From a virus: a DNA stretch of 64,000 bases. The notes below the pieces were generated by a model that worked only from the letters and a program-made list of their open reading frames with translations, searched no databases and was not told the origin of the DNA. The position numbers were made by a program, and so were the translations under genes. Of the stretch, positions 2,271 to 62,586 are shown piece after piece. The stretch covers positions 32,001 through 96,000 of IMG/VR virus record IMGVR_UViG_3300032287_003559, one strand, 5' to 3'. Position 1 is the stretch's first letter. Each line of letters begins with the position of its first letter.

Positions 2271-3272
2271 ATGTTTGAATATTTTTATAACGAAATCTTA
2301 AGAAAAACCGTAATTGCTTTTGGTTCTTTATTTAATGGTATAGAAATAAAGCATACGAATACATCAGATAATGTTGTTAGTGTTATAAAAGTTCCACTTG
2401 CGTATGGACCAACACAAAAGTTTTTGGCTAGACTTGAGCAATCTGCAGATCTTAGTCAAAAAACTCAAATAACTTTACCAAGAATGTCATTTGAGTTTAC
2501 TGGATTGACTTATGATGCAACAAGAAAAGTCACAACAACTCAAACATTTACTGTAAAAGATTCCACTGACGGCACAGAAACGAAGAAAGTTTTTATGCCT
2601 GTTCCATATAATATGCAATTTGAATTAAGCATTATGTCAAAACTTAATGATGATTGCCTTCAAATAGTTGAGCAAATTTTACCTTATTTTCAACCAGCTT
2701 ATTCTTTAACAGTTGAACTATTAGACAACATTAATGAAAAAAGGGATATTCCAATAGTTTTAGAAAATATAACTATGCAGGATGACTATGAGGGCAATTT
2801 TACTACTAGAAGAGTTTTAATTTACACTCTAAGATTTACAGCAAAAACATATTTGTTTGGACCTGTTGCCTCTGCAACGAAGGATGTTATCAAAAGAGCT
2901 TCTATTGGATATATTTCGGGCGGAACTACTTCCTCTCCAAAAAGAGAAGTTGTATATGCTTCCGAACCTAGAGCAATTAAGAACTATACCGGAATTGTTG
3001 TTGCAAACATCACTAAAGATATTGGAACGTCAGATACACTAATTTCAGTAAATAATGCAAGTCAAATTAGTGCAAATAGTTACATTGAGATTGAGGGTGA
3101 AGAAATTTACATTAAATCAAAATCTGGAAATGTTCTTACAGTTGAAAGAGGTAGAGATGGGACAAATATTATCTCGCATATTTCTGGAGCAGAAGTCAAA
3201 TCAATCACTACTGCAGACAATCTTCTAATTGAAGAAGGTGACGATTTTGGATTTAGTGGATCAATCGTATAA
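2271..3272 (+). CDS. gp15: Tail sheath stabilizer/terminator gp15
   Basis: YFYNEILRKTVIAFGSLFN, VPLAYGP.QKF, LPRMSFE, QIVEQILPYFQP motifs. Confidence 0.92.
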   Translation: MFEYFYNEILRKTVIAFGSLFNGIEIKHTNTSDNVVSVIKVPLAYGPTQKFLARLEQSADLSQKTQITLPRMSFEFTGLTYDATRKVTTTQTFTVKDSTDGTETKKVFMPVPYNMQFELSIMSKLNDDCLQIVEQILPYFQPAYSLTVELLDNINEKRDIPIVLENITMQDDYEGNFTTRRVLIYTLRFTAKTYLFGPVASATKDVIKRASIGYISGGTTSSPKREVVYASEPRAIKNYTGIVVANITKDIGTSDTLISVNNASQISANSYIEIEGEEIYIKSKSGNVLTVERGRDGTNIISHISGAEVKSITTADNLLIEEGDDFGFSGSIV

Positions 3273-42151: not shown

Positions 42152-42224
42152 GGGGAATTAGCTCATTTGGTAGAGCACTGCCTTTGCACGGCAGGGGTGA
42201 CCGGTTCGAGTCCGGTATTCTCCA
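42152..42224 (+). tRNA. tRNA-Ala(TGC)
   Basis: GGGGAAT/ATTCTCC acceptor with G3:U70; CTGCC-TT-TGC-AC-GGCAG arm; GTTCGAG T-loop. Confidence 0.95.
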
Positions 42225-42254
42225 CTTCTAAATACTTAAAAAAGTATTGTATAA

Positions 42255-54989: not shown

Positions 54990-55071
54990 GGGTAGGTGTC
55001 CGAGTGGTTAATGGAGGCGGACTGTAAATCCGCTGGCTCTGCCTACGGGGGTTCAAATCCCTCCCTGCCCA
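54990..55071 (+). tRNA. tRNA-Tyr(GTA)
   Basis: GCGGA-CT-GTA-AA-TCCGC arm, long variable arm, GTTCAAA T-loop. Confidence 0.95.
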
Positions 55072-55073
55072 CC

Positions 55074-55102
55074 TTGACGATCTGATTCTTAAGTGGTATG
55101 AT
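55074..55102 (+). promoter_or_regulatory. Sigma70-like promoter
   Basis: TTGACG-17nt-TATGAT. Confidence 0.6.
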
Positions 55103-55187
55103 TGTCTTATGAGCGGTGAGGGTCCAAACCTCACATAAGTCTCACCCCTCCTATGCCTCTCAACGATGCACAAACCAGGAGGGCTCT

Positions 55188-55261
55188 GTTTCGGTAGCTC
55201 AGTTGGATAGAGCATCTGCCTTCTAAGCAGTTGGTCACAGGTTCAAGTCCTGTCCGAAACG
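55188..55261 (+). tRNA. tRNA-Arg(TCT)
   Basis: GTTTCGG/CCGAAAC acceptor; CTGC-CT-TCT-AA-GCAG. Confidence 0.93.
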
Positions 55262-55288
55262 CTTGGAGTCTTTGATTCCATATATAAA

Positions 55289-55444
55289 AGCGATAGAGGG
55301 TAAGTCCCTGTTATATCCTTATGAGGTATATCACACTTACTCCATCAAATCGTAGGAAGTGCAAACCCTCTCGCTGGTCATAGTATTCTGTGTCTAGATG
55401 AAGGGAAAGGTGATTCTGTCCGCACATAGAAATCCCTCCTACCA
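55289..55444 (+). ncRNA. Unassigned structured RNA candidate in tRNA cluster
   Basis: Several complementary segments, no ORF, ends in CCA just before tRNA-Leu. Confidence 0.4.
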
Positions 55445-55446
55445 TA

Positions 55447-55529
55447 GCTCTAGTGGTGGAACGGTAGACACAGCGGACTTAGAATCCGCCGCCTTAAAAA
55501 GCGTGGAAGTTCAAATCTTCTCTGGAGCA
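55447..55529 (+). tRNA. tRNA-Leu(TAG)
   Basis: GCGGA-CT-TAG-AA-TCCGC arm, long variable arm. Confidence 0.93.
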
Positions 55530-55530
55530 C

Positions 55531-55559
55531 TTGACAATCAAACTTAAATAGTTTATGAT
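55531..55559 (+). promoter_or_regulatory. Sigma70-like promoter
   Basis: TTGACA-17nt-TATGAT upstream of tRNA-Gly. Confidence 0.7.
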
Positions 55560-55568
55560 TGTCTTATT

Positions 55569-55640
55569 GCGAAAGTAACTCAACGGTAGAGTCCCTGCCT
55601 TCCAAGCAGGTTGTTGCGAGTTCGAATCTCGTCTTTCGCT
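55569..55640 (+). tRNA. tRNA-Gly(TCC)
   Basis: GCGAAAG/CTTTCGC acceptor, U73; CCTGC-CT-TCC-AA-GCAGG. Confidence 0.95.
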
Positions 55641-55663
55641 CTTGGAGTTTATCTCCACAAATT

Positions 55664-55735
55664 CCGTTGGTAGTCTAGTGGTCAGGACAGGCAGACAATG
55701 CACTTGGAGTTCGGGTTCGATTCCCGACCAGCGGC
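55664..55735 (+). ncRNA. tRNA-like RNA lacking a canonical anticodon arm
   Basis: Acceptor CCGTTGG/CCAGCGG, D arm GTCT/GGAC, T arm TCGGG-TTCGATT-CCCGA intact; anticodon segment cannot form a 5-bp stem with 7-nt loop. Confidence 0.75.
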
Positions 55736-55753
55736 CAGCAAATTTCTTTTCTT

Positions 55754-55933
55754 ATGGAAGTTGAAGTTAATTCTATTAATATCGCAAGACTTCTAAGTGA
55801 ATTAGAAGGTTGCTACATCTTCACCAAATATATGGGGTTTGAAGATGATATGAACACTCTTGATGAAATGAAGAAAAGATATTATAAACTTTACTTCAAA
55901 CTCTATAAGGAAGAAAAAAGTAATCCCCTGTAG
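55754..55933 (+). CDS. 59-aa hypothetical protein (not in ORF track)
   Basis: MEVEVNSINIARLLSELEG...KRYYKLYFKL; stop lies inside the tRNA-Asn 5' end. Confidence 0.6.
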   Translation: MEVEVNSINIARLLSELEGCYIFTKYMGFEDDMNTLDEMKKRYYKLYFKLYKEEKSNPL

Positions 55934-55996
55934 TTCAGTCGGTAGAACGGAGGACTGTTAATCCTTATGTCCCTGGTTCGAGTCCAGGCGGGGGAG
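55924..55996 (+). tRNA. tRNA-Asn(GTT)
   Basis: TCCCCTG/CGGGGGA acceptor, G73; GAGGA-CT-GTT-AA-TCCTT. Confidence 0.95.
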
Positions 55997-56079
55997 TTGG
56001 AAGGACTGGAAATGTCTGGGTCTTCCATTACTAAAACCTAGAGTTTTTCTAGGTCAGGGGGATGGCCATCCCCTGTTTC

Positions 56080-56152
56080 GGGCGATTAGCTCAGCGGTAG
56101 CAGCGTCTGCTTTACACGCAGAATGTCGGGGGTTCGAATCCCTCATCGCCCA
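56080..56152 (+). tRNA. tRNA-Val(TAC)
   Basis: GGGCGAT/ATCGCCC acceptor; TCTGC-TT-TAC-AC-GCAGA. Confidence 0.92.
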
Positions 56153-56180
56153 CTTGCATAAATACTTGAAAAAAAGTATA

Positions 56181-56615
56181 ATGGAAAAACTGTATAAATT
56201 ACTCAGTGATGCACAGTCATCACTTTTTGTTTTATTCCATAAAACTTGGGCATTTCATTGGAATGTTGTAGGTTCAGATTTCACACAACTTCACCAACTC
56301 TTTGGTGGTCAGTATGAAACTATGTTTGAAGAGATTGACCGTCTCTCAGAGCATATGAGATATTTGAATGTAAAACCATTGAGTTCTCTCTCAAGAATGC
56401 TTGAGGTAACTCAAATTAAAGAGGCTGCAAGTTCTACAACAGCAAATAATATGCTTTCAGAACTTCTTGAGAATAATGAAAAGTTTTGTGAAATAATGAC
56501 CGAAATTTCTGAAGAAGCAGAAGCGCAAAAGCAATATGCAACTGCCAATCTATCTCAAGATTTAATGGAATCTCACGGCAAATTTATCTGGCAATTAAGA
56601 GCACATTTACAATGA
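56181..56615 (+). CDS. dps: Dps/ferritin-like protein
   Basis: FHWNVVG..F..LH.LF..QY, IDRLSE, HGKFIWQL motifs. Confidence 0.9.
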   Translation: MEKLYKLLSDAQSSLFVLFHKTWAFHWNVVGSDFTQLHQLFGGQYETMFEEIDRLSEHMRYLNVKPLSSLSRMLEVTQIKEAASSTTANNMLSELLENNEKFCEIMTEISEEAEAQKQYATANLSQDLMESHGKFIWQLRAHLQ

Positions 56616-56630
56616 ATAGGATGAAAAGCA

Positions 56631-56882
56631 ATGTTATCAATAAGATGCAAAGATTGTAATAGAGAATTAACAGGACATCATTCAAAAACAGTAAGTTGTG
56701 GTTGTCCTAATATGGCAACAATTCGTGGAGATAAGATTTCAGCACTTGACTTATCTCGCATTGTTATGCTAAACTCCTTAAAAGAAAATCAAAAAACAAA
56801 TGTGTTAACCTCTCAAGATATTGCTTGGCAGGAAGCACGTCGTCAGCGTAAAGTTAGACGACTTGATTTTGAAGTCCGCTGA
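56631..56882 (+). CDS. Zn-ribbon hypothetical protein
   Basis: IRCKDC...SCGCPN. Confidence 0.7.
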   Translation: MLSIRCKDCNRELTGHHSKTVSCGCPNMATIRGDKISALDLSRIVMLNSLKENQKTNVLTSQDIAWQEARRQRKVRRLDFEVR

Positions 56883-56893
56883 GGACTTATATT

Positions 56894-56978
56894 GGAAAGG
56901 TGGTCGAGTGGTTGAAGGCTCCAGTCTTGAAAACTGGCGATGTGAAAGCATCCGTGGGTTCGAATCCCACCCTTTCCG
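56894..56978 (+). tRNA. tRNA-Ser(TGA)
   Basis: GGAAAGG/CCTTTCC acceptor, G73; CCAGT-CT-TGA-AA-ACTGG; long variable arm. Confidence 0.96.
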
Positions 56979-57082
56979 TTACAGATTTAACAATTTCTTC
57001 AGTAGTGTTACAGAACGAACACAAATTGTTGACGATGAAAATTTTGTGAATAGTATATAGTAGTACTATCACTTAAAAACTT

Positions 57083-57238
57083 ATGGACCAACACACCTAT
57101 AATAACTGGGTCCGTATTAAAGAGACTTTTGAGAAGTCTGGTAATACAGATAACATGTTTTATAAAAGGGCGTGTGAAATCATAAGAACAAAAAGAGATC
57201 CTCTGGCAAGTTTTTTGGAGATGAAAAATGACACCTGA
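57083..57238 (+). CDS. 51-aa hypothetical protein (not in ORF track)
   Basis: MDQHTYNNWVRIKETFEKSGNTDNMFYKRAC...DPL. Confidence 0.6.
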   Translation: MDQHTYNNWVRIKETFEKSGNTDNMFYKRACEIIRTKRDPLASFLEMKNDT

Positions 57239-57386
57239 AGAAGTTCAATCTATGATTGATGAGTCTGTTGCGAAGGCAATTGACAAACACAATAAAACTG
57301 CTACAATAATCTCAGCAACAATCGGATCGATTTTGCTTTTCTTCTATGCTCATGGTGTTATTGCTATTATAGATAGAGTACGATGA
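57228..57386 (+). CDS. 52-aa membrane protein (not in ORF track)
   Basis: MTPEEVQSMIDE...KHN plus C-terminal TM helix; overlaps neighbours. Confidence 0.6.
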   Translation: MTPEEVQSMIDESVAKAIDKHNKTATIISATIGSILLFFYAHGVIAIIDRVR

Positions 57387-57505
57387 GACATTTTGTGTAT
57401 GTTATCCTGAATAATCAACTAGCATTGTTTATTATTGGATGCCTCTTGACAATCGCACCTGCTATCGGTATAATGGTAGTACATTCATCAAAGGATGAAG
57501 ATTAA
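57383..57505 (+). CDS. 40-aa membrane peptide (not in ORF track)
   Basis: ATGA-coupled; MRHFVYVILNNQLALFIIGCLLTIAPAIGIMVVH. Confidence 0.5.
   Translation: MRHFVYVILNNQLALFIIGCLLTIAPAIGIMVVHSSKDED
57446..57474 (+). promoter_or_regulatory. Perfect sigma70 consensus promoter
   Basis: TTGACA-17nt-TATAAT. Confidence 0.8.
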
Positions 57506-57509
57506 ATCT

Positions 57510-57517
57510 TATAAATA
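57510..57517 (+). promoter_or_regulatory. T4-type late promoter TATAAATA
   Basis: Exact consensus upstream of the HNH gene. Confidence 0.7.
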
Positions 57518-57541
57518 GATTTGAACTTTATTTGAAGAATA

Positions 57542-57868
57542 ATGCCAGCAAAAAACCCAAAAGAATACGCTTCGAAGCACTATCAGCAAAATAAATCTTT
57601 ATATGCTGAAAGAAGTAAAGTTGCTAGACTTAGGGTTAAAGAATGGTATAATGAACTTATGAATGATAAGTTCTGTGAAAAATGTGGTGAATCTGATACT
57701 ATTGTATTAGAATGGCATCACATAGATCCATCTAAAAAGGATATGAGCATTGCTGATATGCTTTCGAGAAGAGGAAAACAAACTATCTTAGAAGAGATAG
57801 ATAAGTGTATGTGTCTTTGTGCTAATTGTCACAGAAGATTGCATCATCAAATACGCAACGGGGTGTAG
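57542..57868 (+). CDS. HNH endonuclease (Zn-finger type)
   Basis: CEKCG...LEWHHIDP...KCMCLCANCHRRLH. Confidence 0.88.
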   Translation: MPAKNPKEYASKHYQQNKSLYAERSKVARLRVKEWYNELMNDKFCEKCGESDTIVLEWHHIDPSKKDMSIADMLSRRGKQTILEEIDKCMCLCANCHRRLHHQIRNGV

Positions 57869-57933
57869 CTCAGCTTGGATAGAGCGCCGCTTTTGGGAAG
57901 CGGAAGTCGCAGATTCGAATTCTGTCACCCCGA
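57859..57933 (+). tRNA. tRNA-Pro(TGG)
   Basis: CGGGGTG/CACCCCG acceptor; CCGCT-TT-TGG-GA-AGCGG. Confidence 0.94.
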
Positions 57934-57950
57934 CTCATAAAACTCACTTT

Positions 57951-58181
57951 ATGAAAATGAATCAAGAAATTAACGAACTTACGACATTTACAATTGAAGA
58001 GTTTCAGAATGATTTCGATAACCTTATGAATAGAGTAGAAGGTGGAGAATCGTTCATCATATCAAGTGAGCACGGAAATGCAGTGATTGTACCATACAAC
58101 GAAGTGGTGCAGGTATTTCAAGAATCTGGTGTGAGTGATGAGATCATACGAATACACACCGATCACGAAGAAGGTTCTTGA
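57951..58181 (+). CDS. Hypothetical protein with Phd/YefM-like N-terminal fold
   Basis: FTIEEFQNDFDNLMNRVEGGESFIISSEHGNAVIVP pattern. Confidence 0.65.
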   Translation: MKMNQEINELTTFTIEEFQNDFDNLMNRVEGGESFIISSEHGNAVIVPYNEVVQVFQESGVSDEIIRIHTDHEEGS

Positions 58182-58206
58182 CAAAGAGTTCCAGGTCCTC
58201 TACACT
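58178..58206 (+). promoter_or_regulatory. Sigma70-like promoter
   Basis: TTGACA-17nt-TACACT upstream of the tRNA pair. Confidence 0.65.
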
Positions 58207-58220
58207 AGATCTGGTCTTAT

Positions 58221-58292
58221 GGGACTGTCGCCTATGGGTTAAGGCCCACTGCTTATAACGGTGTGAACTGAGTTCAAGTCTCAGCAGTCCTA
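58221..58292 (+). tRNA. tRNA-Ile(TAT)
   Basis: GGGACTG/CAGTCCT acceptor, A73; CACTG-CT-TAT-AA-CGGTG; CTGAG-TTCAAGT-CTCAG. Confidence 0.88.
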
Positions 58293-58296
58293 CTTT

Positions 58297-58369
58297 GCAG
58301 GTTTAGCTCTCTGGCGAAAGCACCGAACTCATAATTCGGCTAAGGTGGGTTCGATCCCCACAACCTGCA
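58297..58369 (+). tRNA. tRNA with CAT anticodon (elongator Met, or lysidine Ile2)
   Basis: GCAGGTT/AACCTGC acceptor; CCGAA-CT-CAT-AA-TTCGG; lacks the initiator GGG/CCC anticodon stem. Confidence 0.88.
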
Positions 58370-58394
58370 CTGGACACTTACCAAAGCGTCCTAC

Positions 58395-58423
58395 TTGACT
58401 TTCAAACATCACTTCTCTATAAT
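58395..58423 (+). promoter_or_regulatory. Sigma70-like promoter
   Basis: TTGACT-17nt-TATAAT. Confidence 0.75.
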
Positions 58424-58445: not shown

Positions 58446-58661
58446 ATGACTCTCACTGCTAAATTCAAGAAAGACGTTCAAACCCTTCGTGGTGCTGCTA
58501 ACGGCGATTTCTACCTTGATGTAAAGAATCCGAAACTCTACAAAAAGGTTCGTCGTTACTATGAGCAAGAAGGTGTAGTGTTTTCTGGTGATCCTTTGGA
58601 TGATTATGAAATGCTTATGGAATATGTCGCTGCTGATCTTGAGTCTGTTGAGGTTGCATGA
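58446..58661 (+). CDS. Conserved hypothetical protein
   Basis: KFKKD..TL..AANG...LDVKNPKLYKKVRRYYE..GV.F.GD..DDY. Confidence 0.75.
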   Translation: MTLTAKFKKDVQTLRGAANGDFYLDVKNPKLYKKVRRYYEQEGVVFSGDPLDDYEMLMEYVAADLESVEVA

Positions 58662-58927
58662 ACGATCTAGATCTGAATTCGGTAAAGTCAACCAAGACTA
58701 TTATCATTCATGAACGATTTCCTTATCGCTTTGTGCAAAAAGGACATATTGAACTAAACGGCAATCCTGATTTTCGCTTACAAAAAGTGAATGAGTATAC
58801 TAAAAAATACTCTGATATTTATTTGTTTGATAATGGAGATCAAATGCTTCTTGCGATTGAAGATCCCGAATATTCTAAATGGTTAGATCCAGATCGTGTT
58901 CCTTGTTATGTAAAAGATGATGATTAA
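58658..58927 (+). CDS. Conserved hypothetical protein
   Basis: ERFPYRFVQ.G....NGNPDFRLQK...IEDPEYSKWLDP..VPCY; ATGA-coupled. Confidence 0.75.
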   Translation: MNDLDLNSVKSTKTIIIHERFPYRFVQKGHIELNGNPDFRLQKVNEYTKKYSDIYLFDNGDQMLLAIEDPEYSKWLDPDRVPCYVKDDD

Positions 58928-58929
58928 AT

Positions 58930-59330
58930 AGTCTCGGTATGACTTAAAACTAGCCCTGGTCGGGAGCAAACCCCTTATGTCTAAAACAAGTATCTTACGA
59001 TATCTTGGAAACTTTCTCCTTATGATTGGATATCAAACCATGTTATGGGGAGATTTTAAATATGGTTTATTGATAAAAGTTATTGGGGGATTACTCACAG
59101 TACCTTTTGCAATCAAACTTAAACTCTGGGATGTATTATTTTTATGTGCATTCTTTGGGTTTAGTGAGTTTTCAAAACTCATTCAACTTTTCTCAGTTAG
59201 TTAAAACTGAGTGGTGGAGTCAATATGACCCTAGCTAGGTTTCTTGCTTCCTTAAAGAGCAAGTGGTGCGGATGGGACTCTCTCCCGCCTGGTTTCCAAT
59301 TTCCAGTTAAAGAATTGGTGGCGAGCCTGA
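58930..59330 (+). ncRNA. manA-like RNA motif, interrupted by an ORF
   Basis: 5' GTCTCGG..TGAC...GCCCTGGTCGGGA and 3' GGTTTCTTGCTTCC..AAAGAGCAAGTGGTGCGGATGGG...TGGCGAGCCTG recognised from memory as manA-type. Context (after tRNAs, before nucleotide-sugar genes) fits. Not confirmed by a covariance search. Confidence 0.7.
58977..59204 (+). CDS. 75-aa membrane protein nested in the manA-like RNA
   Basis: About three hydrophobic segments; clean ATG...TAA. Confidence 0.65.
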   Translation: MSKTSILRYLGNFLLMIGYQTMLWGDFKYGLLIKVIGGLLTVPFAIKLKLWDVLFLCAFFGFSEFSKLIQLFSVS

Positions 59331-59336
59331 GTTACA

Positions 59337-59365
59337 AAGAGAGGTTGCATAAACCTCTCTTTTTT
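59337..59365 (+). terminator. Intrinsic terminator after the manA-like RNA
   Basis: AAGAGAGGTT...AACCTCTCTT hairpin plus T-tract; overlaps TTGCAT-17nt-TATAAT (59345-59373). Confidence 0.8.
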
Positions 59366-59403
59366 AGTATAATGAAAAAATATATTAATAGTAAAAATAA
59401 AAA

Positions 59404-60222
59404 ATGACTTTATCTCTTTATGGTGGAAGTGGATTTGTTGGAGGTAACTTCAAAAAACTATATTCTGATTATGTGGAGATGCAGAGGGATGAAAGAAAGC
59501 CAAAAACAAAAGATATTTTGTATTTCATTTCAACAGTAGATAACTATAATGTTCACGACAAAATTACACTTGACGTAGACACTAATCTAAAAATTCTCTG
59601 TGAAGTTCTGGATTATTGTAGATCAGAAGATATAACTTTTAATTTTATTAGTTCTTGGTTTGTATATGGCAAAACTCCATACATGCCTGCTAGTGAAGAG
59701 AGTCCATGCTTTCCCACAGGATTTTATTCTATTACAAAAAAATGTGCAGAAGATCTTTTAATTTCTTTTTGCAATACCTATAATGTAAAATATCGTATAA
59801 TGAGATTATGTAATGTTTTGGGTTCTGGTGATCAAAAAGCATCTAGAAAAAAGAATGCAATTACTTGGATGATCGATCAACTTAAGATAGATCATGACAT
59901 TTCTCTATACGACGGAGGATCAAATTGTAGAGATGTGATGCATGTTCAAGATGTTTGTAGGGCAATTAAACTCATTTGCGATAAAGGAAAAACAAACGAA
60001 ATTTATAATGTAGGGTCTGGAAAACCAACTACAATAGGAGAGATTATTTCTTTATCTAAGCATTATCTCAATTCTAAATCTAAAATCAATTATATTGATC
60101 CTCCAGAATTTCATAATAATGTTCAAACAAAAAATTTCTGGATGGACACCAAAAAACTAAAATCCCTTGGATTTGAACCAAAACTTTCTTTAGAATTTAT
60201 CATCAAAGATCTATGTCTGTAA
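59404..60222 (+). CDS. NAD-dependent epimerase/dehydratase (extended SDR)
   Basis: GGSGFVG, FISSWFVYG, YSITK (YxxxK), RDVMHVQD. Confidence 0.9.
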   Translation: MTLSLYGGSGFVGGNFKKLYSDYVEMQRDERKPKTKDILYFISTVDNYNVHDKITLDVDTNLKILCEVLDYCRSEDITFNFISSWFVYGKTPYMPASEESPCFPTGFYSITKKCAEDLLISFCNTYNVKYRIMRLCNVLGSGDQKASRKKNAITWMIDQLKIDHDISLYDGGSNCRDVMHVQDVCRAIKLICDKGKTNEIYNVGSGKPTTIGEIISLSKHYLNSKSKINYIDPPEFHNNVQTKNFWMDTKKLKSLGFEPKLSLEFIIKDLCL

Positions 60223-61529
60223 CTGAAAAAGTATCTAATTTCATTACTTCATTGCAGGAAGATGGAGAAAAATTATTTCCATATCTAGCAAATGAGAGAT
60301 GGAAACGTGGAAATAATGTTTACTATTCTGGTCCATATTGGGACCAAAAAGAAGTGTCTGCTGCAATTACGACGCTTCTAGAAGGTAAATGGCTTCCTGC
60401 AGGAGAAGAAGTAAATAAATTTGAACGACAGTTTTCTAAGAAGTTTGGATTTGATTATTCTGTAATGGTGAACTCTGGTAGTTCAGCCAATCTTGTAATG
60501 ATTTCTGCACTCAAAAAATATTTTGAGTGGAAGGATGGAGATGAAATTATTGTTTGTGTCTGTGGATTTCCAACTACAATTAATCCAATTATTCAGAATA
60601 ACTTAAAACCAGTTTTTGTTGATATAAGTTATGATGATTTAAACTGGAATCTTTCACAAATTAAAGAAAAGATTACAACTAGAACTCGCGCAGTATTCTC
60701 CTCACCAGTTCTTGGAAATCCTTATGATTATGATGCACTTCTTGATATCTGCAATCGTTATAACATTAAGTTGATTGCTGATAATTGCGATAGTCTTGGA
60801 AGTAAGTGGAAAGGTGAATATCTTACAGAACATGCTGTAGCTGCATCTTGTTCTTTTTATCCCGCACATCATATCTCTACAATTGAAGGTGGTATGGTAT
60901 CGTCTAATATTAAAGAAATTGTAGATATTGCCCGTAGTTTTGCCTGGTGGGGTAGGGATTGTTATTGCGTTGGACCACAAAATCTTCTTGAGTGTGGAGT
61001 TTGTGGTAAAAGATTTGACCACTGGCTAGATGGATATGATAAAGTTGTTGATCATAAGTATGTCTTTGGTAATATTGGATATAACTTGAAACCAGCAGAT
61101 CTTCAGGGGTCAATTGGACTTGTACAACTTGAAAAGTTTGATGAGGTCCATCAAAAACGTCGTCATAATAAAGAACGAATTCATAAAATTTTTGAGAATA
61201 TTCCTTTTTGTAGGGTCATTTCTGAAAGATCCGATGCAGAAACTAGTTGGTTTGGTGTTCCTATTGTTTTTGAGTATGATAAACCTGGATTAGTCAAATG
61301 GTTAGAAAATCATAAAATTCAAACACGTAATTATTTTGCTGGAAATATTTTAATGCATCCTGCATATAAACATATTGAACCAGCAAGTAATTATCCAAAT
61401 GCTTCTAAAGTTCTAGATAATGTATTCTTTGTCGGATGTTCTCCAACTATTACAGATGAAATGATTGATTATATCGAAGAAGTTGTAGAAGAATATAAGA
61501 AATCAAATATCCTACATCATCCAGTATAA
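60213..61529 (+). CDS. rfbH: RfbH/DdhC-like NDP-4-keto-6-deoxysugar 3-dehydratase (DegT family)
   Basis: NSGSSANL, DNCDSLGS, SFYPAHHIST.EGG (His at the PLP-Lys position), WGRDCYC, DHKY, GYNLK. Confidence 0.82.
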   Translation: MSVTEKVSNFITSLQEDGEKLFPYLANERWKRGNNVYYSGPYWDQKEVSAAITTLLEGKWLPAGEEVNKFERQFSKKFGFDYSVMVNSGSSANLVMISALKKYFEWKDGDEIIVCVCGFPTTINPIIQNNLKPVFVDISYDDLNWNLSQIKEKITTRTRAVFSSPVLGNPYDYDALLDICNRYNIKLIADNCDSLGSKWKGEYLTEHAVAASCSFYPAHHISTIEGGMVSSNIKEIVDIARSFAWWGRDCYCVGPQNLLECGVCGKRFDHWLDGYDKVVDHKYVFGNIGYNLKPADLQGSIGLVQLEKFDEVHQKRRHNKERIHKIFENIPFCRVISERSDAETSWFGVPIVFEYDKPGLVKWLENHKIQTRNYFAGNILMHPAYKHIEPASNYPNASKVLDNVFFVGCSPTITDEMIDYIEEVVEEYKKSNILHHPV

Positions 61530-61535
61530 GAATAC

Positions 61536-61564
61536 TTGCAAAAAAATATTTCCTTTAGTATAAT
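61536..61564 (+). promoter_or_regulatory. Sigma70-like promoter for gmd
   Basis: TTGCAA-17nt-TATAAT. Confidence 0.55.
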
Positions 61565-61584
61565 AAAATAAACGATATTGCCAT

Positions 61585-62586
61585 ATGAAGGTTGCTTTAA
61601 TTACTGGAATAACAGGGCAAGATGGATCTTATCTTGCCGAACTCCTTTTGGAAAAAGGATATGAAGTTCATGGTATCATTCGCCGTGCATCTCAGATCAA
61701 TACTCAAAGAATTGATCATTTGTATCAAAATATTAAATTACATTACGGAGATTTAACAGATTCGACTAATATAGTTCGAGTTATTCAAAAAGTTCAACCA
61801 GATGAAATTTATAACCTTGGTGCTCAGAGTCATGTCAAAGTATCCTTTGAGATGCCTGAATACACTGCTGATGTGGATGCTTTGGGAACTCTTCGTATTC
61901 TTGAAGCAGTTCGTCTTTTGGGCATGGAAAAGAATGTTCGTATTTATCAAGCTTCTACAAGCGAACTTTACGGTCTTGTTCAAGAAATTCCTCAAAGGGA
62001 AACTACTCCTTTTTATCCTCGCTCTCCCTATGGTGTAGCAAAGATTTATGGTTATTGGATTACAAAAAATTATCGCGAATCCTATGGAATGTTTGCTTGT
62101 ACGGGCATTCTCTTTAATCACGAGTCTCCTCGTCGTGGTGAGACCTTTGTTACACGTAAAATTGTTAAAGGATTGAAAGCAATATCCGAAGGAAAACAAG
62201 ATATATTATGTCTTGGTAACTTGAATGCAAAACGTGATTGGGGACATGCTAGAGATTTTGTTGAAGCAATGTGGATGATGCTCCAACAAGATGAACCGGA
62301 TGATTATGTGGTTGCTACAGGTAAGCAATACTCGGTGCGTGAGTTTGTTGAAACAGCAGCACCATATTTTGGAATGGAAATTGTATGGGAAGGTAAGGGA
62401 CTTAATGAAGTTGGAATTGACAAACTTACTGGAAAACCCGTTATCAAAGTTGATCCTAAATATTTTCGACCTGCTGAAGTAGAGACCTTATTAGGTGATG
62501 CCACAAAGGCAAAACAAAAATTAGGGTGGGAACCTAAAATTTCATTTGAACAATTAGTTGAGGATATGTGCATCAATGACAATTGA
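61585..62586 (+). CDS. gmd: GDP-mannose 4,6-dehydratase
   Basis: [61 protein letters not shown]. Confidence 0.98.

Follow-up and report, generated by a model that had tools for sequence, protein, structure and literature searches.

The region described here, part of a 64,000-nucleotide stretch of viral DNA (hereafter the window), is on balance probably an array of wcaG-type RNA modules carried by a T4-like cyanophage, with a small membrane-protein gene nested between two of the units. Such a modular array with a gene inside it is a new form of a known RNA, and wcaG RNA at this locus is probably a chain of small independent units with a gene inside, and hence not one compact riboswitch leader. 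Along the + strand, the elements follow one another as a gp206-like gene, unit X, the nested gene ORF75, unit Y, the wcaG core, a terminator with an embedded promoter and a nucleotide-sugar operon.

Identity and genomic context of the RNA

In an Rfam scan of the whole window, a single structured-RNA match was found in the region: wcaG RNA (RF01761) at 59235–59332 on the + strand, sitting wholly 3′ of ORF75. With 103.2 bits against a gathering score of 42 bits, and with model positions 1–98 of 98 covered, the Rfam covariance model identifies it as a full-length member of the wcaG family; the genomic setting, with sugar genes downstream in cyanophage DNA, is likewise that described for wcaG, which is known from marine cyanophage DNA 5′ of exopolysaccharide or high-light genes. 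The original prediction had named the locus a 'manA-like' RNA. The manA model (RF01745; gathering score 55.2 bits) gave no match at E ≤ 10 in 58700–59500 nor in the whole 175-kb genome, whilst the same search did detect the true manA RNA of phage RN05-S at 77.8 bits. The conserved strings of our locus, whether in X, in Y or in the core, are all missing from this RN05-S manA, which looks unrelated, and a manA identity was ruled out. As no manA match exists and a complete wcaG was found, the family name manA was wrong. A permissive scan of 58700–59500 (E ≤ 10) returned one other notable match, a weak wcaG-like one of 26 bits at 59155–59226, which overlaps unit Y.

The source genome is that of a 175-kb T4-like cyanomyovirus of Kyanoviridae type, the nearest isolate being S-SRM01 at 68 % identity. 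Eight related phage isolates were fetched, and all eight carry wcaG 3′ of a homologue of the cyanophage gene gp206 (phrog_481). In the window this homologue is ORF89 (58658–58927, + strand), which lies directly 5′ of unit X. The sequence TTAAATA at 58924, initially read as the upstream boundary of the unit, overlaps the stop codon of this gene and is not conserved.

Structure of the wcaG core and of two upstream units

The wcaG core (59235–59332, + strand) comprises two pseudoknot/hairpin units plus a helix, P2. The first hairpin, P1 (59243–59249 with 59257–59263), is followed by tail 1, UGGUGCGGAUGGG (59264–59276), which overlaps the 5′ strand of P2 (59272–59276 with 59282–59286) and is therefore not fully single-stranded. 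The second, P3 (59296–59301 with 59313–59318), is combined with a pseudoknot of CUGG (59289–59292) with CCAG (59303–59306) and is followed by tail 2, UGGCGAGCCUG (59319–59329). Compensatory changes were observed in both P1 and P3 (in 21 and 25 sequences), whilst P2 is mostly invariant, with some changes. The pseudoknot partner at P3 is formed by the four bases before UUUC, with the pairings CUGG/CCAG, CAGG/CCUG, CCUG/CAGG and CGAG/CUCG. Of 31 distinct sequences, 28 retain it, whilst permutation gave 8.9 on average; a similar but weaker pairing accompanies P1. Conserved G:U pairs are consistent with the + strand.

Two further units, X and Y, lie upstream of the core, outside the Rfam wcaG model, and match no Rfam family. 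Unit X (58930–58974, + strand) begins with a 4-bp hairpin, H1 (AGUC/GACU; 58930–58933 paired with 58941–58944), from which an A-rich linker leads to the conserved string CUGGUCGGG and then to a small helix of GGG (58962–58964) with CCC (58971–58974); its tail, CUGGUCGGGAGC, occupies 58956–58967 on the + strand. The third pair of H1 is U:A in 17 of 30 loci and A:U in 12, a compensatory change. Unit Y (59187–59234, + strand) contains hairpin P0 (59192–59198 paired with 59205–59211), whose loop holds the ORF75 stop codon, UAA at 59202–59204. The conserved string GUGGUGGAGUCA follows the hairpin; the tail, UGGUGGAGUCA, is located at 59212–59222 on the + strand, and a small helix (GUCA/UGAC) pairs 59216–59222 with 59226–59231. 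Across 25 loci, P0 shows compensatory changes at two pairs (U:A in 14 and C:G in 10; A:U in 18 and G:C in 5). It had been proposed that the last codons and the stop of the ORF form a first pseudoknot: the hairpin is borne out by these changes, but a pseudoknot in unit Y was not supported, with few usable sequences available. The division into a 5′ structured part (58930–58974) and a 3′ part, with a 75-codon ORF (58977–59204) between them, held up well, the two parts corresponding to the conserved unit X and to Y (from ∼59187) plus the core. Taken together, the alignments show that each unit folds locally into a short hairpin or pseudoknot, 3′ of which stands a conserved tail starting with UGGN.

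By alignment of the flanks, X and Y were found to be conserved in the eight phage isolates and in >100 viral contigs. A sequence profile of the units (nhmmer) matched the phage's own 175-kb genome at X and Y only; in 879 kb of wcaG loci, 164 of its matches lie ≤ 420 nt 5′ of wcaG and five at a greater distance 5′ of it, all of them on the wcaG strand, with none elsewhere. In the 1.05 Mb searched, X/Y-type units thus occur solely upstream of wcaG and on its strand, which argues for membership in the same system; a generic dispersed repeat was ruled out on the same grounds. In one of the isolates, S-CAM1, the X-type unit is present twice.

The nested gene ORF75

ORF75 (58977–59204, + strand) has 75 codons, lies between X and Y and is predicted to specify a small three-helix membrane protein. 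It matches phrog_2318 (E-value 2.6 × 10−19), with residues 1–70 aligned to profile positions 1–70 of 71, and its homologues fall into 448 clusters. For 46 distinct 75-codon homologues, differences at the three codon positions were distributed as 13261:4863:24303, and amongst single-base codon differences 17151 were synonymous versus 6040 nonsynonymous. The phrog_2318 match, the homologues and the codon statistics together rule out a spurious ORF, and the codon patterns indicate that ORF75 is a genuine coding gene under purifying selection. AlphaFold models the protein as a membrane bundle of three helices (pLDDT 85.6). Foldseek found no significant PDB match for this fold, the top entries being three-helix membrane subunits of NuoK-like topology with E > 1, and an Atlas feature search returned viral hypothetical clusters only.

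The ends of ORF75 are shared with the flanking units. The sequence GGGAG at 58962–58966 lies inside X, 10 nt 5′ of the start codon; as the start codon comes after the CCCCUU of X, this GGGAG would serve as the ribosome site of ORF75. At the other end, the final codons of the ORF are the 5′ strand of hairpin P0. As these positions show, X provides the putative ribosome-binding site of ORF75, whilst the stop codon of the gene sits in the loop of the Y hairpin.

In the S-SRM01 locus (MW015081.1; L001, 2673–3229), where X, the ORF75 homologue, Y and the core occupy ∼2715–3130, this homologue is without annotation in the deposited record. The same locus includes an annotated 'hypothetical protein', QPX48260.1 (3023–3229), which overlies the wcaG RNA and the terminator and is probably spurious; the window carries an equivalent false ORF at 59225–59407.

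Architecture of related loci

In order to place the window amongst its relatives, a pattern scan of IMG/VR was performed, which yielded 106 usable wcaG loci. X and Y, in either order, are contiguous with the core in 33 of these, whilst the arrangement of the window, X–ORF75–Y–core, was found in another 33; the survey for inserted ORFs thus placed ORF75 between X and Y repeatedly. Twelve loci have both units, then a different small ORF, then the core (type C), and 11 have one unit only. Both the order and the number of units vary (X–Y, Y–X, X alone, Y alone); X is next to Y in S-SZBM1 and RN05-S, whilst in the window and in S-SRM01 the two are ∼250 nt apart with an ORF in between. Amongst 76 loci sampled by the ORF75 protein, X is directly upstream in 66 and Y is at the end of the ORF in 69. 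The gp206 homologue precedes the array in 68 of 96 loci, and the distance from its end to P1 is ∼100–120 nt for contiguous arrays versus ∼308–340 nt where ORF75 is present.

A covariance model was then built from 21 contiguous-array loci only, with the window left out, and run on the 64-kb window. It gave exactly two matches, and these flank ORF75. The first (58916–59058, 31 bits) aligns well over model positions ∼1–62, i.e. X, corresponding to ∼58916–58978; the second (59115–59331, 137 bits) aligns Y plus the core from ∼59197. With this wcaG-type model, the two halves were therefore recovered on either side of ORF75. The notion of a gene inside one RNA stands in so far as ORF75 lies between conserved parts that are contiguous in related phages, but the wcaG motif itself is uninterrupted. 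As that motif is intact and contiguous (1–98 of 98), the gene lies between separable units of an array and not inside a single fold.

Small ORFs between units are always found at unit junctions, one or two per array, and two occur together in some (L019, L087). The presence of different ORFs at another junction, and sometimes of two, fits independent modules better than a structure that encloses a gene. A second small-protein family (MATK..., coiled-coil-like, 68–79 aa) occupies the junction of units and core in type C loci (L004, 2733–2939; L005, 2610–2849; L143, L156 and L205), and a third, ending in ...NNFVSE(T/R)K, is found just before the core in L041, L100 and L105. Degenerate arrays were also seen: P1 and P3 are fused in L163 and L164, most of the core is deleted in L172 and L174, and in L206 and L208 the terminator and then a GDP-mannose dehydratase gene come directly after unit Y. 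Such arrays have the appearance of products of recombination between repeated units.

The original prediction had X pair with the 3′ end through CTCG (58933–58936) and CGAG (59322–59325), so as to form one closed structured RNA around the ORF as its cargo. The two tetramers are indeed complementary in the window and in some relatives. Across 52 loci, however, they are Watson–Crick complementary in 20, versus 20.3 expected if they were independent, and this lack of covariation rules the closing helix out. Moreover, RNAalifold predicted local helices only in the contiguous arrays and no pairs between X and the tail, arrays with X or Y alone exist, and so do ORFs between Y and the core. As shown by these alignments and predictions, no long-range helix links X to the 3′ end, and we regard the closed RNA as extremely improbable. 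The missing closing helix, the ORFs at the Y–core junction, the loci with two ORFs and the hybrid or deleted cores all lead to a chain of separable units.

Terminator, promoters and downstream genes

The array is followed by a composite of terminator and promoter (59336–59373, + strand), consisting of a hairpin (59336–59362) and a T run. A strong terminator at 59337 had been predicted to end the unit, and this agrees with what was found: an intrinsic terminator is present within ∼60 nt 3′ of the core in 93 of 106 loci, with a stem whose sequence varies but whose pairing is preserved. The candidate promoter of the downstream operon was also recovered, as a promoter-like site of TTGCAT (59345–59350, in the hairpin loop), a 17-nt spacer and TATAAT (59368–59373). 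This layout is conserved in 73 of 106 loci, where the loop of the terminator holds a −35-like box (TTGCAT, TTGACA or TTTACA) and TATAAT stands 3′ of the T run, with a spacing of 16–18 nt. An anti-terminator formed by P2 and a terminator arm was plausible in the window and in S-SRM01 and failed in other phages, as judged by eye for a few loci; it was rejected.

A candidate sigma-70-like promoter (TTGACT, 17 nt, TATAAT; 11 of 12 consensus matches) is located upstream at 58395–58423 on the + strand. As no other terminator-like site is present between this candidate and the terminator at 59336, we infer a single early transcription unit that would start there and include a gp205-like gene, the gp206-like gene, X, ORF75, Y and the core.

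The nucleotide-sugar operon (59404–62586, + strand) comprises genes for an NAD-dependent epimerase (59404–60222), a DegT-type aminotransferase (60213–61529) and a GDP-mannose 4,6-dehydratase (61585–62586), all on the + strand and assigned by Pfam. In most loci the first gene 3′ of the array is a nucleotide-sugar gene, with epimerase or GDP-mannose dehydratase in 31 of 87, cytidylyltransferase in 15 of 87 and other sugar-nucleotide enzymes in several more. As the upstream gene and the class of the downstream gene are both conserved, synteny is uninformative as to whether the array is a 3′-end element or a 5′ leader. In S-IOM18, S-CAM1 and S-M1 (loci L003, 3078–3274; L006, 3142–3332; and L008, 3062–3267), a tRNA gene (Pro or Gly), in place of a sugar operon, comes within ∼25–30 nt 3′ of wcaG.

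Complementarity of the tails to tRNA 3′ ends

All four tails (X, Y, tail 1 and tail 2) start with UGGN. They were compared with 31 tRNA 3′ ends from one Cyanobium genome, taken as a proxy for the host of the phage, and with 40 genomes of the Cyanobium order. Cyanobium was reached via the phage psbA gene, being the one picocyanobacterial match in a genome scan that otherwise returned mostly filamentous cyanobacteria. Tail 1 proved perfectly complementary over 13 nt to the end of tRNA-Leu(CAG) plus CCA (p = 0.0003; this and the following p-values come from composition-matched shuffles). The X tail is complementary to tRNA-Pro(CGG) over 9 nt (p = 0.016), the Y tail to tRNA-Ala(GGC) over 8 nt (10 of 11 positions; p = 0.014) and tail 2 to tRNA-Arg(CCG) over 8 nt (10 of 11 positions; p = 0.06). 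None of the 5550 TGG sites of the phage genome has a longer run than these 13 nt of tail 1, and the tRNA-Leu(CAG) 3′ end is preserved in 25 of 29 picocyanobacterial genomes of the order. The matched tRNA genes do not encode CCA, so that it is mature tRNA that is matched, as opposed to the remnant of a gene.

For the tails of X and Y, the tRNA-Pro and tRNA-Ala of the phage itself are almost equally good matches. Tail 2 has two common variants, GAGCCUG and GUGCAUG, each with one mismatch to the tRNA-Arg(CCG) end; no covariation was found between these and host tRNA-Arg(CCG) variants, that end being invariant in 28 genomes. Pairing of the tails past NCCA would require the acceptor stem of the tRNA to be opened. 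A T-box-type UGGN complementary to tRNA NCCA-3′ is present in silico, with complementarity above background, and we take the complementarity of the tails to mature picocyanobacterial tRNA 3′ ends as suggestive only.

Comparison with known systems

The locus agrees with the published wcaG family (RF01761; PMC2864571) in its full-length match, its T4-like cyanophage and its position upstream of epimerase, DegT and GDP-mannose dehydratase genes. It differs in that, here and in most related loci, X and Y extend the array in the 5′ direction, the motif making up its 3′ part only; in that a protein gene lies between units; and in that a promoter-bearing terminator separates the RNA from the 'regulated' genes. 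The manA motif, which Weinberg et al. (2010; PMC2864571) described alongside wcaG, is similarly an orphan structured RNA of T4-like cyanophages built from repeated sets of stem-loops, but, as set out above, it is found in neither window nor genome and shares no conserved strings with the array.

The T-box riboswitch is a tRNA-sensing leader of Firmicutes in which UGGN pairs with the NCCA-3′ end of uncharged tRNA. The array likewise has UGGN able to pair with a tRNA NCCA-3′ end, just 5′ of an intrinsic terminator. No T-box family was matched by Rfam in the window or in the 58700–59500 scan, however, and the array is without Stem I or a specifier codon; nor was an anti-terminator overlapping the terminator found in the loci inspected. 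Furthermore, a T-box has one UGGN site, whilst the array has at least four, for different tRNAs; the complementarity of the array reaches 8–13 nt into the acceptor arm, unlike that of the T-box, and the genes concerned are sugar genes instead of aminoacyl-tRNA genes. The likeness between the two lies in a possible mode of action only.

Arbiol reportedly dealt with PeSL cassettes of T4-type phages in 2010. Such composite promoter–terminator cassettes have been documented for coliphage and vibriophage T4-type relatives, with no cyanophage data (Comeau, 2014; PMC4122927). The array, whose possible likeness to them lies in a stem-loop terminator and an early-type promoter bordering variable gene cassettes in a hyperplastic region, has its −35-like box (TTGCAT/TTGACA) inside the loop, with TATAAT beyond the T run, in the 73 of 106 loci mentioned above.

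Possible function and alternative explanations

Judging from the sequence comparisons, we think it on balance probable that each unit would work as a site of its own on a single early transcript running to the terminator; with such independence, a translated gene between the units would be tolerated. As to what they might do, we tentatively propose a mechanism that we hold to be plausible yet somewhat short of probable, in which particular mature host tRNAs would be bound by base pairing of their CCA-3′ ends with the tails, much as in the UGGN contact of the T-box, with consequences at X, at Y and at the terminator. tRNA pairing at X would mask the ribosome site of ORF75, the Y tail would be covered by ribosomes that finish translation at the ORF75 stop codon, and the extent to which the adjacent terminator is read through into the sugar genes may depend on whether the last units are occupied. 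A bolder and, in our estimation, unlikely extension is that the array could be a multi-site sensor or trap of the phage for free CCA-3′ ends of tRNAs Leu-CAG, Arg-CCG, Pro-CGG and Ala-GGC, with ORF75 wired in; the trapped tRNAs would read G/C-ending codons, those least needed by an AT-rich phage with its own tRNAs for A/U-ending codons.

These proposals have to be weighed against other explanations. Conventionally, the core would be a cis-acting, riboswitch-type leader controlling the terminator before the sugar operon, with X and Y accessory or unrelated, for instance as leader and trailer of ORF75. The sugar-nucleotide genes that come first downstream and the terminator that follows the core in most loci speak for this, and the motif was rated a probable cis-regulator and riboswitch when first described (Weinberg et al., 2010; PMC2864571). 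Yet the terminator lies 12–20 nt past the motif, without overlap, and contains a promoter-like site in most loci, such that the operon need not depend on read-through; in three phages a tRNA gene, not a sugar gene, comes after the RNA; and X and Y are present solely with wcaG. We therefore rate the conventional leader as a doubtful explanation. The repeated, similar elements of hairpin plus GG-rich tail, variable in number and order, would also suit binding sites for a protein (gp206-like, gp205-like or a host factor), in which case the array would be a sponge or assembly platform and the tRNA match a coincidence. The gp206 homologue directly upstream in most loci is in keeping with this, but the gp206-like and gp205-like proteins are without a Pfam family, and no specific protein was supported by the tests performed here. 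In addition, the 13-nt match to tRNA-Leu(CAG) tops all 5550 background sites, and past UGG the tails are unlike one another, in better agreement with several nucleic-acid partners than with a single protein; we consider protein sites to be rather improbable.

Finally, the units might be recombination cassettes at the DNA level that shuffle small genes in the manner of PeSLs (PMC4122927), their conservation arising from recombination and not from RNA function. The gain and loss of ORFs exactly at unit junctions, the hybrid and deleted cores (L163/L164, L172/L174 and L206/L208) and the composite of terminator and promoter 3′ of the array are all in keeping with this. Nevertheless, the units are found on the wcaG strand only, and the compensatory changes in H1, P0, P1, P3 and the P3 pseudoknot, together with the strand-specific G:U pairs, point to selection on RNA pairing. 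Recombination between repeats may well explain how ORFs enter, but not why units are retained, and as a full account of the array it seems very improbable.

The reading of the array as a chain of independent RNA units bears on how wcaG is approached. Ever since 2010 the motif has stood as an orphan 'riboswitch candidate', annotated in phage genome papers as a cis-regulator without supporting data. To our knowledge, no ligand of wcaG has been reported. The literature mentioning wcaG covers the 98-nt motif only, with the cis-regulation idea of 2010; upstream units, nested ORFs, the terminator/promoter and tRNA ends are all absent from it. If wcaG belongs, as its 3′ part, to a longer chain of separable units with real genes nested in it, insulated from the 'regulated' operon by a terminator with its own promoter, there is less to be gained from screening the 98-nt motif by itself for small-molecule ligands. 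The complementarity between tails and tRNA, on the other hand, names a candidate partner that can be tested at the bench, and the nested ORF, with its putative ribosome site within unit X, offers a built-in reporter.

Other features of the phage genome

Eleven phage tRNA genes are located at 54990–58370, this cluster ending ∼560 nt 5′ of unit X, and a lone tRNA-Ala(UGC) is found at 42152–42225; the phage tRNAs mostly read A/U-ending codons. Between the tRNA-Tyr and tRNA-Arg genes of the cluster is an abiF RNA (RF03085; 47.6 bits, 55147–55183), a family that is also present in cyanophage S-CREM1 (PMC9964418). An ORF for an HNH endonuclease (57542–57868) lies inside the cluster and abuts tRNA-Pro. 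Elsewhere in the genome, outside the window, the psbA gene (G000:C1:120165–121455) is interrupted: its reading frame ends after ...MHER at ∼121166 and resumes at 121375 with NAHNFPLDLA. Some cyanophage psbA genes contain an intron, and this interruption is consistent with one; within the interrupted gene, Aragorn calls a false tRNA-Leu.
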